DNA from: a virus
Length of the DNA: 64,000 bases
Strand: one strand, 5' to 3'
Virus record (IMG/VR): IMGVR_UViG_3300044712_001062
Span: 1 to 64,000 of that record
Translations under genes and position numbers: made by a program
In this document: one piece after another, positions 1 through 4,138 of the stretch
Layout: each line of letters starts with the position of its first letter
How positions within the stretch are numbered: position 1 is the first letter of the stretch
Notes under the pieces: generated by a model
Database searches by the model: none
What the model was told of the DNA's origin: nothing
What the model saw: only the letters and a program-made list of their open reading frames with translations

Positions 1-110
1 TTGACCAGATCTGGGCGTTGATGGACGACACATTTATATATTGATTAGGCAAATATTAAATAGTAAATGAGGTTAATTCTGATACTAAAACGTTTTAGTA
101 GGTAATTATC

Positions 111-401
111 ATGGGAAAATTAGTACAGGCAGCCACAGAGGCTTTTAACAACTGGAAAGCAACCACCCCAGTTACAATTGATGCATATGACAAGATTTCA
201 GACGAAGATGTCATTAGCAACTACCGCACTGAACAGAAATACCTTATTGGCATTCGTGATGCAACTGAAATCGAAAGTTCATTTTATGCTGCACGAACTG
301 AAGCCCTTCAAGCACTTGAAACCAAACAACTCGCTGAACGTCAAGCCCTTGCAGCACTCTGGCAAGCAAAGGAAGATGCCGATTATGATGTCGATGCTTG
401 A
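111..401 (+). CDS. hypothetical acidic helical protein, first gene of a plus-strand operon
   Basis: 96-aa ORF with AGGT Shine-Dalgarno before the ATG; TTTATATA box at about 33-40. Confidence 0.7.
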   Translation: MGKLVQAATEAFNNWKATTPVTIDAYDKISDEDVISNYRTEQKYLIGIRDATEIESSFYAARTEALQALETKQLAERQALAALWQAKEDADYDVDA

Positions 402-679
402 TGAAGGTAGTTGGACATGATCGCAGATGAGATTTACAACATTTCACTTGAAGATGAAAATGGCAATTAATATGATCGATGAAGGTGCTTACACATGATT
501 GATCAAGGACAGCGAAACTTTTCATTTGATGAAGGTACTTACACATGAATGGTGAAGATTTTGATGGTTAAAGAACGCGAGGGCAATTAAACATGGCTGA
601 AGTAGAAAGTGCATTAGAAAAAGCAAGACGTATTCGACTTGAAAAGTTGGAAGCCTTGAAAAAACTATTGAACAAATAA
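394..679 (+). other. chain of seven coupled micro-ORFs (8, 17, 8, 17, 8, 8, 28 aa)
   Basis: 394-420 MLDEGSWT; 417-470 MIADEIYNISLEDENGN; 472-498 MIDEGAYT; 495-548 MIDQGQRNFSFDEGTYT; 545-571 MNGEDFDG; 564-590 MVKEREGN; 593-679 MAEVESALEKARRIRLEKLEALKKLLNK; ATGA overlaps or 1-2 nt gaps; GATGAAGGT..ACATGA repeated three times. Confidence 0.55.
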
Positions 680-687
680 ACATTACA

Positions 688-773
688 TTTATATAAAGTT
701 ACTAACATATTTGTATGTGCACAAGGGCAAAATAAAAAGGAAAGGAACCTTTCTTTTTCGTTTTGTTTAGAGT
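688..773 (+). ncRNA. dispersed hairpin small-RNA unit, copy 1
   Basis: TTTATATA-11nt-ATATTTGTATGTGC, hairpin GGGCAAAAT AAAAAGGAAAG..CTTTCTTTTT CG TTTTGTTT, then AGAGT. Confidence 0.7.
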
Positions 774-824
774 AGTTTTAAATTGTTGTGCGAACTATTT
801 TGAAAAAAGTAAAGGTTTGATTTA

Positions 825-1586
825 TTAGTATTTTTCATGCTTTGCGAATAACTGTTTTGGAATCTTAAATACTGTGTGATCCCAACTGTAATCGCTGCCA
901 TCGACTTTGAATAAAACCCATCCATTGTCTGGTCGTTGTTGACTTTTCAAACCCATGTGGCCATCAAGACCTTTCCAACATGGCGTGTTAATGGTGATTG
1001 ACGAACTTGAACCACTATATGCGAAATTGTGGGTGTGACTTCTTATGAATATATCTGCATCATCACCCTGTAATTTAAGATTGTTGACGAACTGCTGCTG
1101 TGAGTTATAACGATTTCCTGGATTACCACTATATGAAGCGTGATGCTGGATGTTCATTGTGATGTTTTCAAAATCGGCATCTCCAAACCAACCATACCAT
1201 TCACCGCCCATCATTTCGCAGCAAATTTCATCAGCACTTGGATTATGCCCAGTATGATATCCACTACCTTCAGTAAAGATCCACTCACCCCCGCAATCGA
1301 TCATCTTCAAACATTGTCTGGCGATATCACATTGTACAAGGTAATCACTCACCAAAACATCCTTCCCGCGACCTTTATAATTTAGGCCATCAACGATATC
1401 CCCGTTGCAAATTACAGCATCAACATGCCCAATTTGCTTGCACATCCCTGTCCAATAACTCCATACAAATTCCTGTAATTTAGACTGCTTCAATTCCAGA
1501 TCACGATCTTTATGATAATATCGTGGTGGCAAAAGCCCAAACATCGATCCGCAATGTAAATCTGATATTCCAAGTATTTTCATCAA
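825..1586 (-). CDS. calcineurin-like metallophosphoesterase
   Basis: SDLH, NGDIVDG, HH and SHTH metal-binding motifs. Confidence 0.85.
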   Translation of the reverse strand: MMKILGISDLHCGSMFGLLPPRYYHKDRDLELKQSKLQEFVWSYWTGMCKQIGHVDAVICNGDIVDGLNYKGRGKDVLVSDYLVQCDIARQCLKMIDCGGEWIFTEGSGYHTGHNPSADEICCEMMGGEWYGWFGDADFENITMNIQHHASYSGNPGNRYNSQQQFVNNLKLQGDDADIFIRSHTHNFAYSGSSSSITINTPCWKGLDGHMGLKSQQRPDNGWVLFKVDGSDYSWDHTVFKIPKQLFAKHEKY

Positions 1587-1589
1587 GAT

Positions 1590-1838
1590 TCAAACCTCAA
1601 TCCTATGAACTCTTTTTGGATAAGTCCCACCCAATCGAATTTTCAACTTGGAAGATCCCGTGGGCATTCTAGTGATCGAATCCACACCAATTTTATAAAT
1701 ATCCCTAAAATAATCCAGATGATAAACGATATCACTCTTAACTCCATCCTGGACAATACTAACAGTCGCAGTGGAATCTTCCCCTTCATGTTCATAAACA
1801 TCAATGATATATTGAGTGTGTAATGTCATAATAATCAC
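1590..1838 (-). CDS. hypothetical protein
   Basis: 82-aa ORF coupled to both neighbours. Confidence 0.55.
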   Translation of the reverse strand: MIIMTLHTQYIIDVYEHEGEDSTATVSIVQDGVKSDIVYHLDYFRDIYKIGVDSITRMPTGSSKLKIRLGGTYPKRVHRIEV

Positions 1839-2182
1839 ACTATCTCATCATCAACAATCCACAACCACTGGGTTGCGTATTCTGGATATGTTGCGATATT
1901 TCCACCAGCGGTAACAACCTTAAACATCATGCGATACATACCGCTTTCATCGCTCTCACCAGCACCCCACCAATACTCAACAACACCAGTTCCAGCATCT
2001 ACTATGGAACATGGTTGATCATAGATTGTAGGGGTCGTCTCGCCATCCTTAACCATCGTGAACAAAACAGTCTGACCGGTCAAATCGTGGTCAACATTAC
2101 CTTGAGTATCAATATTCCAGTCCATAATTTGATAACTCAACGGAACCGTGTCACCCTTCTTAAATCGCATCGTATAAGTCAT
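1835..2182 (-). CDS. BppU N-terminal-like baseplate/virion protein
   Basis: KKGDT..DLTGQTVLFTM..GVVEY.W...D.SGMY..F.V...TYP pattern; start moved to MTYTM, just downstream of a TATA box. Confidence 0.7.
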   Translation of the reverse strand: MTYTMRFKKGDTVPLSYQIMDWNIDTQGNVDHDLTGQTVLFTMVKDGETTPTIYDQPCSIVDAGTGVVEYWWGAGESDESGMYRMMFKVVTAGGNIATYPEYATQWLWIVDDEIV

Positions 2183-2281
2183 TATATAATAATGAGCGAA
2201 TGAAATATATAAAGTTAACCCCCATGCAATAATGAAAATTGACTGCTGCAAAATAGATTACAAGAAACAACAATGAAAATC

Positions 2282-2365
2282 ACTCTAAACAAAATGAAAG
2301 GAAAAAGGTTTCCCTTTTATCTTGTCCTTTGGGCACATACAAATATATTTTATCCACATATAAAA
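2282..2365 (-). ncRNA. dispersed hairpin small-RNA unit, copy 2
   Basis: minus strand: TTTTATAT-11nt-ATATTTGTATGTGC, hairpin GGACAAGAT..ATTTTGTTT, then AGAGT. Confidence 0.7.
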
Positions 2366-2385
2366 CTAATGTGGGAATATACCAT

Positions 2386-2886
2386 TTACTTTTTCTTACT
2401 TTTAATCAATAACATGTCTACTCTATTGGCCATTTCACGCGCATGAGAACTCATATATTTGTAATCTCTTGCTCTATGCATATACCGAGTGTAATTGAAA
2501 TTTGGATCAAAGTCTAATAATTCTTGGGCTTTCTCGGGATGTAATTGTTGAAATTTAGACCACTCATAGGCGCATTCCTTACCATACTTCAATATTGCTT
2601 TCAATTTTTGATCCCAAGTTTGGAATTGCGATTGTTTTTGAGAAGCTTCCTGGATAGATTTATTTAGTTTTTCTAACCCATGCTTGATGATCATTTTGTC
2701 CAATAACAATTTTTCATTTTCATCAAGATTTAATTCAATAGCAATATTTTTTACATAGGCATTTTTGATCATTTGCCTATTAGTGATGTTTAGATAATTT
2801 CTTAATAGTTTGTCAACTACTTGTTTGGGATCAAGTTGTTTATCTTTTAAGAGTTTCCCAAATTCAGGGCGAATATCAATTTTCAT
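2386..2886 (-). CDS. hypothetical basic protein, possible ribbon-helix-helix-like N-terminus
   Basis: 166-aa ORF; N-terminal strand followed by QVVDKLLRNYL helix. Confidence 0.6.
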   Translation of the reverse strand: MKIDIRPEFGKLLKDKQLDPKQVVDKLLRNYLNITNRQMIKNAYVKNIAIELNLDENEKLLLDKMIIKHGLEKLNKSIQEASQKQSQFQTWDQKLKAILKYGKECAYEWSKFQQLHPEKAQELLDFDPNFNYTRYMHRARDYKYMSSHAREMANRVDMLLIKSKKK

Positions 2887-2935
2887 GATCGGTGATTATT
2901 TTTCAAAATTGAAAGTTTCAAAAGTAATTTTTTTT

Positions 2936-4138
2936 TTATTCGTCAAGGAATATGTCGTTTCCTCGAATTGTAATCATTCCATATCTTTTCATTTCTTCAA
3001 GTTTATCATAGAGTGATTGTGCGGACATCTGAACTTGGAAACATACCGTATTAAGATAATTTCTTGTTATCATTATACGACCATCATCTGTGGTAGTTCC
3101 ATAAACCCTAATCAAATTAATTACTTGTTTAAGATCTGGGCCGGTAATGATATCCCTACGCCATTCGAATTGCTTATTTAATATGTCCATTAACCCTTTG
3201 TCTTGAACATCAAGCATTATACTAGTATCTGCACCATATTTTGCCAAATGCCAACCAAGGATCAGTTTGGCGTATGATGAAATTTCATAAGGTTCAATAT
3301 CAAATTTTTCATAAAGGTGGAATACTGATTCATCATAATCGATATTTTCAATAGAATTAAAACTTGTTGTCCACGTCTTAATGGCATCTTTCATCTCGTG
3401 GATTTGCTTAACGTCGGGTCGTTTATTTCGAGAATCCCAGACAGCCCTACGTAAATCACTTTTCAATTTGGCATCTGGTAAATTCAATAAAAAGCAAATA
3501 CGACGACCCATACCACTGCCCAATTCATATTTTGCAGGCTGAACACCGCCCCACAAAGTACAATATGTTTGATATTCTATATCTCCACCAGCAACAGATT
3601 TGCGAACTTCTCCATGATCAAGGGCTGCCAATAATTGAGACTCCATCTGGCTATTAAATGATTGGCCCATTGCATCAGTAATTCCTTTGAATTCATCCAT
3701 CATCAAAAAGCCTTGGCCATGTGTTTCGAATTTACCTTCTCTTTTTACATAATTACCATGGCTTGGTGTATAAGTTCCAACTAATGATGCTTCATTGACA
3801 TTTTGACACTGAATCATTTCATAATTACAATTGCCGAATATAGAATAGTCATCCATTCCCATATTTTTCAAGTAATATGATTTCATGTATCCAGGAGGAG
3901 CCACAAATATAATATGTAATCGCATATTTGGAATTGCATAAGACTCCCAATAGACCTTTCGGCCTTGATTCATGACATTAAAAGCGTGTATTGCATAGGA
4001 GCAAACATATGGCGGGGCATAAGTTTCATAGGATAAAGTCCCTCTCTGTTCCAGATTATCTAATATCATCTGCATTACATCTGGATTATTGGACACTTTA
4101 CTCATTAAGAAACTCCAACTATACGTTTGACTTATCAT
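2936..4138 (-). CDS. MCM-like AAA+ helicase (ATPase domain plus probable winged helix)
   Basis: HIIFVAPPGYMKS Walker A, ASLVG, FLMMDEF Walker B, LLAALDHG, GRRICF arginine-finger region; start moved to MISQT. Confidence 0.75.
   Translation of the reverse strand: MISQTYSWSFLMSKVSNNPDVMQMILDNLEQRGTLSYETYAPPYVCSYAIHAFNVMNQGRKVYWESYAIPNMRLHIIFVAPPGYMKSYYLKNMGMDDYSIFGNCNYEMIQCQNVNEASLVGTYTPSHGNYVKREGKFETHGQGFLMMDEFKGITDAMGQSFNSQMESQLLAALDHGEVRKSVAGGDIEYQTYCTLWGGVQPAKYELGSGMGRRICFLLNLPDAKLKSDLRRAVWDSRNKRPDVKQIHEMKDAIKTWTTSFNSIENIDYDESVFHLYEKFDIEPYEISSYAKLILGWHLAKYGADTSIMLDVQDKGLMDILNKQFEWRRDIITGPDLKQVINLIRVYGTTTDDGRIMITRNYLNTVCFQVQMSAQSLYDKLEEMKRYGMITIRGNDIFLDE

Follow-up and report, generated by a model that had tools for sequence, protein, structure and literature searches.

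Translation of neighbouring genes is reportedly coupled by termination and reinitiation at ATGA or TGATG overlaps in archaea as well as in bacteria (PMC6728339, PMC10666635). The partners are co-directional open reading frames (ORFs) joined by overlaps of the -4/-1 type or by gaps of a few nucleotides (nt), and a short 3' part of the upstream ORF is said in PMC10666635 to suffice for coupling. We analysed a locus with this arrangement in the virus record IMGVR_UViG_3300044712_001062, where a gene of 96 amino acids (aa), g96, is followed by seven very small ORFs, o1 to o7 (Table 1). The window is the whole stretch analysed, namely the first 64 kb (64,000 nt) of this 135,061-nt virus contig. Known coupling joins real genes, often those for the subunits of a complex, whereas here six of the seven downstream partners are ORFs of 8-17 codons that are missing from relatives. 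Taken together, our comparisons indicate that o7 is a real, conserved small gene that had previously gone unannotated. The micro-ORFs o1-o6 (394-590) are probably, with considerable room left for doubt, lineage-specific debris of duplicated junctions and of a decaying paralogue, and this debris is probably translated in passing.

Two further kinds of known system resemble the array. The classical by-product of junction tandem duplication shares with it copied stop/start junctions with a Shine-Dalgarno (SD) motif, chimeric mini-ORFs and absence from relatives. Unlike a simple junction duplication, the array is older and messier: its units are 59% identical, its pieces are non-collinear, and part of it matches a junction (that of the MIDQ ORF, see below) which in relatives lies behind a different gene. 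The second kind is PeSL, reported as mobile regulatory cassettes that flank ORFan genes in the hyperplastic regions of T4-type phages (PMC2839356, PMC4122927). PeSL and the 21-nt repeat of our array have in common a short repeated regulatory sequence at gene boundaries, a hypervariable region of a tailed virus and sites of module gain and loss. They differ in that PeSL is a promoter plus stem-loop dispersed over the genome, whereas this repeat is an SD-plus-ATGA junction without a stem-loop signal and confined to one locus. We see no sign of a new kind of system in this array.

The convergent metallophosphatase encoded beside the array matched 18 proteins at E <=1e-5 (the nearest 55-64% identical). 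An alignment of these proteins led to 7 viral and 46 metagenome loci, and the related loci counted in what follows are L006-L059 (54). Single-protein searches for related loci with g96 or the metallophosphatase gave nothing useful; g96 alone had no homologue by tblastn in phage records, matched only itself among 5.8 billion proteins and belongs to no Pfam family, and DNA near-identical to window 1-3000 was absent from phage records. Two loci retain both flanking genes. In L013, a Laminin_G_3 gene and two further ORFs precede a 100-aa homologue of g96 (44% identity over 97 aa, E 1.6e-20) ending ...DVDYEA-TAA; the ATG of a 26-aa gene, MDETPIEKARQIRAEKYAALMALINA, follows after 2 nt, with a TTTATATA box past its stop. 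In L059, found by alignment of g96, a Laminin_G_3 gene precedes a 101-aa homologue (49%) that runs through TAATG onto a 28-aa gene. On the evidence of L013 and L059, the ancestral state is judged to be g96 abutting the small gene.

The array itself is peculiar to this virus. Neither the 21-nt repeat (at <=2 mismatches) nor the pattern DEGx[WYF][TS] followed by a stop was found in any of the 54 related loci. Counted by one chain rule, six small ORFs precede the small gene in the window, one does so in each of L013, L016 and L017, and none in L014, L018 or L059. From this comparison the six micro-ORFs are judged not to be conserved; of the seven ORFs, only o7 is. A first-pass annotation of this DNA had proposed a family of acidic DEGx(W/Y)T peptides, a proposal that is not supported in view of the absence of motif and repeat from all these loci and the direct junction of L013 and L059. 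As a refutation of its reading it had named relatives that retain the repeat without the starts and stops; the relatives compared here have neither.

By contrast with o1-o6, o7 is 54-68% identical to ORFs of 25-28 aa in L013, L014, L016, L017 and L018 (alignment A4, tblastn), and a 28-aa ORF stands in L059. Copies of this small gene, with the consensus METALEKARRIRAEKLAALLALIGA, lie at window 593-679, L013 7060-7140 (minus strand), L059 2806-2892 and L014 5712-5789 (minus strand). All seven intact copies carry a GAGG-type SD motif 6-9 nt upstream. A TATA-like box stands past the stop in the six copies covered by that check, which did not extend to L059; it reads TTTATATA in L013 and L014 and TTATATA in L016-L018. 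By these alignments, at least seven related viruses have kept the small gene as the last of their tail-fibre operon, and the last ORF of the first-pass annotation is borne out as a real gene with homologues in relatives. A scan with alignment A4 confirmed no further relative. The gain is an unannotated gene of 25-28 residues at the tail-fibre operon end in a group of uncultured, probably archaeal viruses, placed directly ahead of what would be a TATA-driven hairpin RNA.

All seven ORFs, with their lengths and junctions, were recovered by direct reading, three-frame translation and a chain-following script. The lengths first reported, 8, 17, 8, 17, 8, 8 and 28 codons, match exactly in size and position, and so do the ATGA overlaps at 417, 495 and 545, the 8-nt overlaps at 394 and 564 and the gaps of 1 and 2 nt at 472 and 593. 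Read from g96 to o7, the junction spacings are -8, -4, +1, -4, -4, -8 and +2, each of them a stop/start overlap or few-nt gap of the kind that marks coupled ORF pairs. The DEG(S/A/T)(W/Y)T endings ascribed to three ORFs are likewise there, in o1 (MLDEGSWT), o3 (MIDEGAYT) and o4 (...FDEGTYT). The lengths are correct but not fixed, as had been supposed, in that the 8/17/8/17/8/8 series depends on the ATG chosen: alternative open chains run at 401-430, 427-498, 549-590 and 376-420, the last of which lengthens o1 to 14 codons. If chains are counted permissively, six other places in the genome have at least six small ORFs in a row, one of them seven, and three of these six run antisense to long ORFs. 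The remaining chains, of 6-7 small ORFs each, lie on the minus strand at genome 100381-100581, 78126-78326 and 76594-76794, where no ORF of at least 100 aa covers them.

The array stands out statistically. ATGA occurs 10 times in 380-600 against 1.9 expected, the highest count of any 221-nt segment on both strands of the whole genome. As had been noted for most of the ORFs, SD-like motifs are common: a 4-5-mer of GGAGGTGA lies 4-11 nt ahead of five of the seven starts, compared with 9.8% of all 6,720 ATGs, and none is present at o1 or o3. In this genome, the 4-mers most enriched ahead of long ORFs are GAGG, GGAG and AGGT. The 21-27-nt repeat has three copies (400, 478 and 528) that match at 21-23 of 27 positions, are 70-87% alike and lie 78 and 50 nt apart. 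Since three of the junctions are copies of this one repeat, they do not count as independent evidence.

Table 1. Features of the g96-o7 region (window positions; + is the strand given)
Feature	Positions	Strand	Description
TTTATATA box	33..40	+	Lies within the 649-aa Laminin_G_3 gene, at its 3' end; probable promoter of a transcript with g96, the micro-ORFs and o7
g96	111..401	+	96-aa gene, helical, acidic C-terminus (...WQAKEDADYDVDA); function not assigned
o1	394..420	+	8 codons, MLDEGSWT; 8-nt overlap with g96; no SD-like motif; holds repeat copy 1
21-nt repeat copy 1	400..420	+	GAAGGT, spacer, ATGA
o2	417..470	+	17 codons, MIADEIYNISLEDENGN; resembles g96 codons 26-35 in the same frame
o3	472..498	+	8 codons, MIDEGAYT; no SD-like motif; repeat copy 2 at 478-498
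o4	495..548	+	17 codons, MIDQGQRNFSFDEGTYT; start AAGGTG, 7 nt, ATGATTGATCAA; repeat copy 3 at 528-548 forms its end
o5	545..571	+	8 codons, MNGEDFDG; fragment resembling the g96 C-terminus (DYDVDA*)
o6	564..590	+	8 codons, MVKEREGN; 13 codons if started at 549
o7	593..679	+	28-aa conserved gene (MAEVESALEKARRIRLEKLEALKKLLNK); GAGGG 9 nt upstream
Tandem units	394-471 and 472-549	+	Each with one 8-codon and one 17-codon ORF in the same register
TTTATATA box of small hairpin RNA	688..695	+	8 nt past the o7 stop
Long hairpin with T-rich tail (small-RNA copy 1)	725..768	+	Folds at -15.9 kcal/mol (z -3.0); the g96-o7 transcript probably ends here

The same operon end is remodelled in other relatives. 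L014, L016, L017 and L018 have an unrelated 89-aa gene in the place of g96, with an ATGA overlap onto a short ORF, MIDQINFYL(K/E)Y..., of 17, 20, 20 and 32 codons, respectively; a 40-aa version exists elsewhere (P0021). The MIDQ ORF may be either a small gene of variable length or a decaying stub; a phmmer search with the 32-aa MIDQ ORF of L018 against 1.84 billion representatives returned one 40-aa MIDQ ORF and one spurious repeat protein, with no long intact gene. In L014 (5804-5857, minus strand) and L018 (1720-1839, minus strand), remnants of the g96 C-terminus lie out of frame, lack an ATG and still end at the small gene in a TGATG, and in L016 and L017 the 20-codon ORF stops 6 nt ahead of it. 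The L014 remnant has 32 of 36 nt in common with window 360-395, whereas the flanking metallophosphatase is only 55% identical in protein, which suggests a recent exchange at this locus. L019-L025 and L027 go further and have other sequence in place of the small gene's 5' part.

The same operon end of L006 (6776-7528, minus strand) encodes four small proteins, of 111, 49, 35 and 53 aa, from tightly coupled genes. The gene for the 53-aa one recalls the small XkdX-type genes of tail-fibre operons (PF09693), with a sub-threshold match to Phage_XkdX (20.5 bits against a 23.5-bit cut-off) and a match to phrog_134. Neither g96 nor o7 matched PF09693, and the micro-ORFs are too short to scan. Across these relatives, the tail-fibre operon end appears as a hot spot of module replacement and gene decay, and its recognition as such is a second gain of the comparison.

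We favour an origin in which about 190 nt would have been inserted in the last codons of g96, parting it from the formerly coupled o7. The insert would consist of copied gene junctions, each with an SD motif, a spacer and a stop/start overlap, together with decayed fragments of a g96-type gene. Since each piece would be a former gene end or start, it would carry its own SD-like motif, an ATG, a nearby stop and the parental codon signature; the inherited junctions and codons would therefore form a gapless chain of coding-looking micro-ORFs with tight overlaps. As expected if the insert sits in the last codons, g96 stops two to five codons earlier than its homologues (alignment A3). The units copy a real gene end and the next start, and they are absent where the flanking genes are kept, as in the debris of junction duplication. 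The decay seen at this operon end in the other relatives speaks for the same origin.

Several alignments connect the insert with gene ends of this and other genomes. Window 536-604 aligns to the g96 3' end and small-gene junction of four relatives (...GAAGAT..TTTGATG...GAGG..TAAAC-ATGG; alignment A5), so that o5, o6 and the junction between o6 and o7 would be what is left of a second g96-type gene end, decayed but with the ancestral junction and the GAGG motif of o7 preserved; the 3' end of o6, ...GAGGGCAATTAAAC+ATG, matches the L013 junction GAGGCTTAAAC+ATG. The start of o4 has the same AAGGTG..ATGATCGATCAA junction that precedes the MIDQ ORF in L014, L016 and L018 (alignment A6), and L017 likewise. 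Frame-keeping DNA matches of 18-19 of 27 nt join g96 to the insert at 187-213/433-459 (19/27, with an offset that is a multiple of 3), 265-291/597-623 and 381-407/551-577 (18/27). Furthermore, 402-592 scores 42 against g96, a value reached by 0.55% of 2,000 random genome segments. At the protein level, the similarity of o2 and o4 to g96 was not significant (shuffle p 0.33-0.87), and that of o7 to g96 was weak (shuffle p 0.02-0.03).

The codons and the tandem units are consistent with this origin. The micro-ORFs have codon log-odds of 0.60 per codon, which fits former coding sequence; real genes score 0.27+-0.12 and off-frame small ORFs -0.13+-0.10, and in 3,000 random draws of six off-frame small ORFs each the micro-ORF score was never reached. 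Positions 394-471 and 472-549 are identical at 46 of 78 sites without gaps (null 21+-4, with a maximum of 39 among 20,000 genomic 78-mers), and by this measure o1/o2 and o3/o4 are a diverged 78-nt tandem duplication. Tandem Repeats Finder gave 0 rows over the array because the units are too diverged. Their identity is patchy by block: 22/29 in the junction, 3/15 in the adjacent block, then 14/18 and 7/16. Between o2 and o4, differences fall at 6, 9 and 10 of 18 first, second and third codon positions, a pattern that gives no sign of purifying selection in this single paralogous pair. Expression would follow from the flanking signals, with a transcript running from the box at 33-40 to the hairpin. 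Ribosomes leaving g96 would probably translate some micro-ORFs, by reinitiation or by fresh SD-driven starts; o7 would be started mainly from its own GAGG motif, the end of o6 keeping the ancestral junction, and the o1-o6 peptides are taken to have no function of their own.

Several points weigh against this origin. The units are 59% identical, yet in both the ATG and the ATGA are preserved and the 17-codon ORF stops at the same position (TAA vs TGA). Their junction block is far better kept than the adjacent one, which plain neutral decay does not predict and which may point to gene conversion of, or selection on, the junction blocks. None of the six junctions has loosened, and an SD-like motif has survived at five of the seven starts. 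The g96-like pieces stand in the insert in the order A', C', B', not collinear with g96, which excludes a simple one-step duplication and requires several events. In addition, several of the homology statements rest on alignments of 18-40 nt, and the ancestral state is drawn from two relatives, at 44-49% protein identity, which are not the closest ones; those, P0003, P0004 and P0007, have a metallophosphatase that is 62-64% identical and lie on contigs of 52-131 kb.

If the array is debris, it carries a caution for the search for micro-ORFs. Copied junctions bring a ribosome-binding site, a start and a stop, and fragments of old genes keep their codon bias. Such debris can pass intrinsic tests for coupled arrays (overlaps, SD motifs, codons) and yet be absent from the nearest relatives.

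The tightness of the junctions leads to a different explanation, possible but on balance unlikely, in which selection after the insertion kept the junctions tight and ribosomes pass by termination-reinitiation from g96 through o1-o6 to o7. Such a relay would set a low, fixed o7:g96 ratio or keep a long spacer covered by ribosomes. The spacings from g96 to o7 suit it, -4 being the commonest spacing among real gene pairs here (10/70), and the survival of the ORF boundaries between the 59%-identical units speaks for it as well. That coupling needs overlaps or very short gaps, as stated in PMC10666635, agrees with this geometry. Furthermore, in six of six relatives with an intact small gene, an open frame stops -1 to +6 nt from its ATG. 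These relatives, however, manage with none or one intervening ORF, and the frame that runs up to the small gene in L014 and L018 lacks an ATG, so that coupling cannot feed the small gene in these two. An SD-like motif stands 6-9 nt ahead of o7 and likewise of each of its six homologues. No such motif precedes o1 or o3, and six successive reinitiations would be expected to transmit few ribosomes. The relay of the first-pass annotation is upheld in its geometry, which fits coupling, but the GAGG of o7 makes a six-step relay unneeded and relatives do without the array. Should the relay prove to be selected, nature would offer here a case of a decaying gene retained solely to bridge ribosomes.

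An explanation that sets the ORFs aside as incidental is improbable. The 21-27-nt repeats would then serve to bind a protein, to link modules during recombination and exchange (in the manner of the PeSL cassettes of T4-type phages) or to form part of a box C/D-like RNA. The better conservation of the repeat block than of its flanks (22/29 against 3/15) accords with this, as does its place in a hot spot of module replacement where a breakpoint falls on the AAGGTG..ATGATCGATCAA junction. Two of the three copies read UGAUGA, 12 nt, AUGA (copy 2 has CGAUGA), and weak Rfam matches were obtained to archaeal sR2 (16.9 bits) and snoU2-30 (13.8 bits). These scores are far under the gathering thresholds (42 and 60), a CUGA box D at a suitable distance is lacking, and the fold of 380-700 is no better than that of shuffled sequence (z -0.06), with no RNA-structure signal. 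Moreover, the repeat was found nowhere else in the genome at <=3 mismatches and in no relative. An archaeal box C/D small RNA was considered on its own account. In such RNAs, box C (RUGAUGA) and box D (CUGA), with C'/D', lie about 12 nt apart; the box-C-like UGAUGA is present, but with no box D in place and 16.9 against 42 bits for sR2 this candidate was rejected.

Pattern scans of viral contigs for the repeat returned only L002, a chance match in a different frame, and L003-L005. In L003 (1089-1112; also in L004 and L005, all one unrelated phage of 47% G+C) there is an exact 21-mer of repeat copy 3, with which a 169-aa gene ends (...DIDEGTYT stop) and which also overlaps the start codon ATG of a 647-aa gene. 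That phage and the present genome had nothing else in common. A rough estimate with an assumed collection size gives about 0.1 exact 21-mer matches by chance, and the match is probably due to chance or to convergence on SD plus ATGA.

A function of the peptides themselves is very improbable. On this reading, the products of 8 and 17 residues would mimic other C-termini through their AYT or TYT (and SWT) ends, for instance by binding in the HbYX manner to alpha-ring pockets of the 20S proteasome of the host. Peptides with the C-terminal HbYX motif open the gate of the archaeal 20S proteasome (PMC10349142, PMC11475706). Compared with those peptides, MIDEGAYT and ...FDEGTYT are alike in the eight-residue length, the penultimate Tyr and the free C-terminus. 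They are unlike them in having A, T or S at the hydrophobic position and Trp in one copy, and in occurring in no relative. Two of the three repeat-derived ends have the penultimate Tyr and free C-terminus, and the virus is probably archaeal. On the other hand, the motif is absent from all 54 related loci, and only A among the residues before Tyr is even weakly hydrophobic; of AYT, TYT and SWT, only AYT fits the hydrophobic-Tyr-any pattern, and it does so loosely. These letters double as the SD motif and ATGA of the following ORF, a role that explains their conservation without a peptide function, and o1 and o3 lack an SD-like motif. More speculative still is a relay that would yield fixed amounts of acidic 8- and 17-residue peptides whose (A/T)-Y-T ends might dock as HbYX mimics, opening the gate or blocking PAN/Cdc48 in late infection; we give it scarcely any credence.

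One longer gene read through frameshifts or stop readthrough, or else an assembly artefact, is hardly credible at all: each fragment has coding-like codons in its own frame, but about seven frame changes would be needed in 200 nt, TGA readthrough in frame 1 gives an implausible basic sequence with more stops, SECIS_4 scores 20 bits against a cut-off of 38, an independent assembly is identical, and long ORFs elsewhere in the window are intact. That second assembly of the same run is one 134,917-nt contig (word depth 32) that crosses the window start and is identical over 1-1200 except for one base, free of indels, which excludes assembly errors as the source of the frame changes. No population variants appeared in that run, which is kept as contigs. 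Other candidates were rejected as well. A diversity-generating retroelement does not fit, as there is no reverse transcriptase and the repeat mismatches are of all kinds rather than confined to adenine. For a mini-CRISPR (clustered regularly interspaced short palindromic repeats) array, the repeats are too dissimilar and too unevenly spaced. A leader-peptide attenuator is at odds with the flat fold (z -0.06) and with the position of the array at the operon 3' end. Finally, an antisense 100-aa ORF at 244-546 was set aside, the minus frames having negative codon scores.

The array lies within a larger operon that the contig ends divide. The last 174 nt of the contig repeat the first 174 nt with one mismatch (window position 47, A/G), and the record, labelled linear and 83% complete, looks closed or circularly permuted at about 134.9 kb when its ends are compared. 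On that reading the contig is a circle cut at this spot, by which the tail-fibre operon is split and the rest of it stands at the opposite contig end. The micro-ORFs had been described as running against the dominant strand; they do not do so by themselves but close a long plus-strand tail-fibre operon at the other end of the contig. Upstream on the plus strand, a protein with an Mtd_N domain is followed by three Laminin_G_3 proteins (671, 253 and 649 aa), the last ending at window 44. After the Laminin_G_3 genes come the TTTATATA box, which overlaps the last of them, then g96, the micro-ORFs, o7, the second TTTATATA box and the hairpin RNA. Minus-strand genes converge from the right, the first being the metallophosphatase at 825-1586. 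That the ORF run ends at small-RNA copy 1 was correctly seen, since a TATA-driven hairpin RNA lies there. The virus is probably an archaeal, tailed one, to judge by three features: the best full-length PolB matches are haloarchaeal tailed viruses at ~25% identity, the best named match of the metallophosphatase is a Methanomicrobiales virus, and TTTATATA boxes, which we take to be the archaeal TATA consensus, are present.

Two proteins of the upstream module deserve mention. The 389-aa protein at genome 128803-129972 (L060 2804-3973) carries the Mtd_N (major tropism determinant N-terminal) domain, and the genome had no match to a reverse transcriptase (RVT_1); by its domain content, this protein is taken to be a tropism-determinant-like fibre without a diversity-generating retroelement. 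The 649-aa Laminin_G_3 protein at genome 132982-134931 (L060 6983-8932) scores 23.5 bits against a 23.8-bit cut-off for Toxin_R_bind_N, underneath its Laminin_G_3 match, and we read this as fold resemblance only within a lectin-fold family.

The promoter-like elements recur elsewhere. A TTTATATA box at genome 103433-103465 ends 22 nt before the ATG of a 167-aa ORF, a spacing that would give a leaderless mRNA from an archaeal-type promoter. CATTTATATA is present 8 times in the genome. A dispersed small-RNA family, in which CATTTATATA is followed by a spacer, by ATTTGTATGTGC and by a long hairpin, has copies at window 686-768, at genome 104197 (plus strand) and at window 23200 (minus strand).

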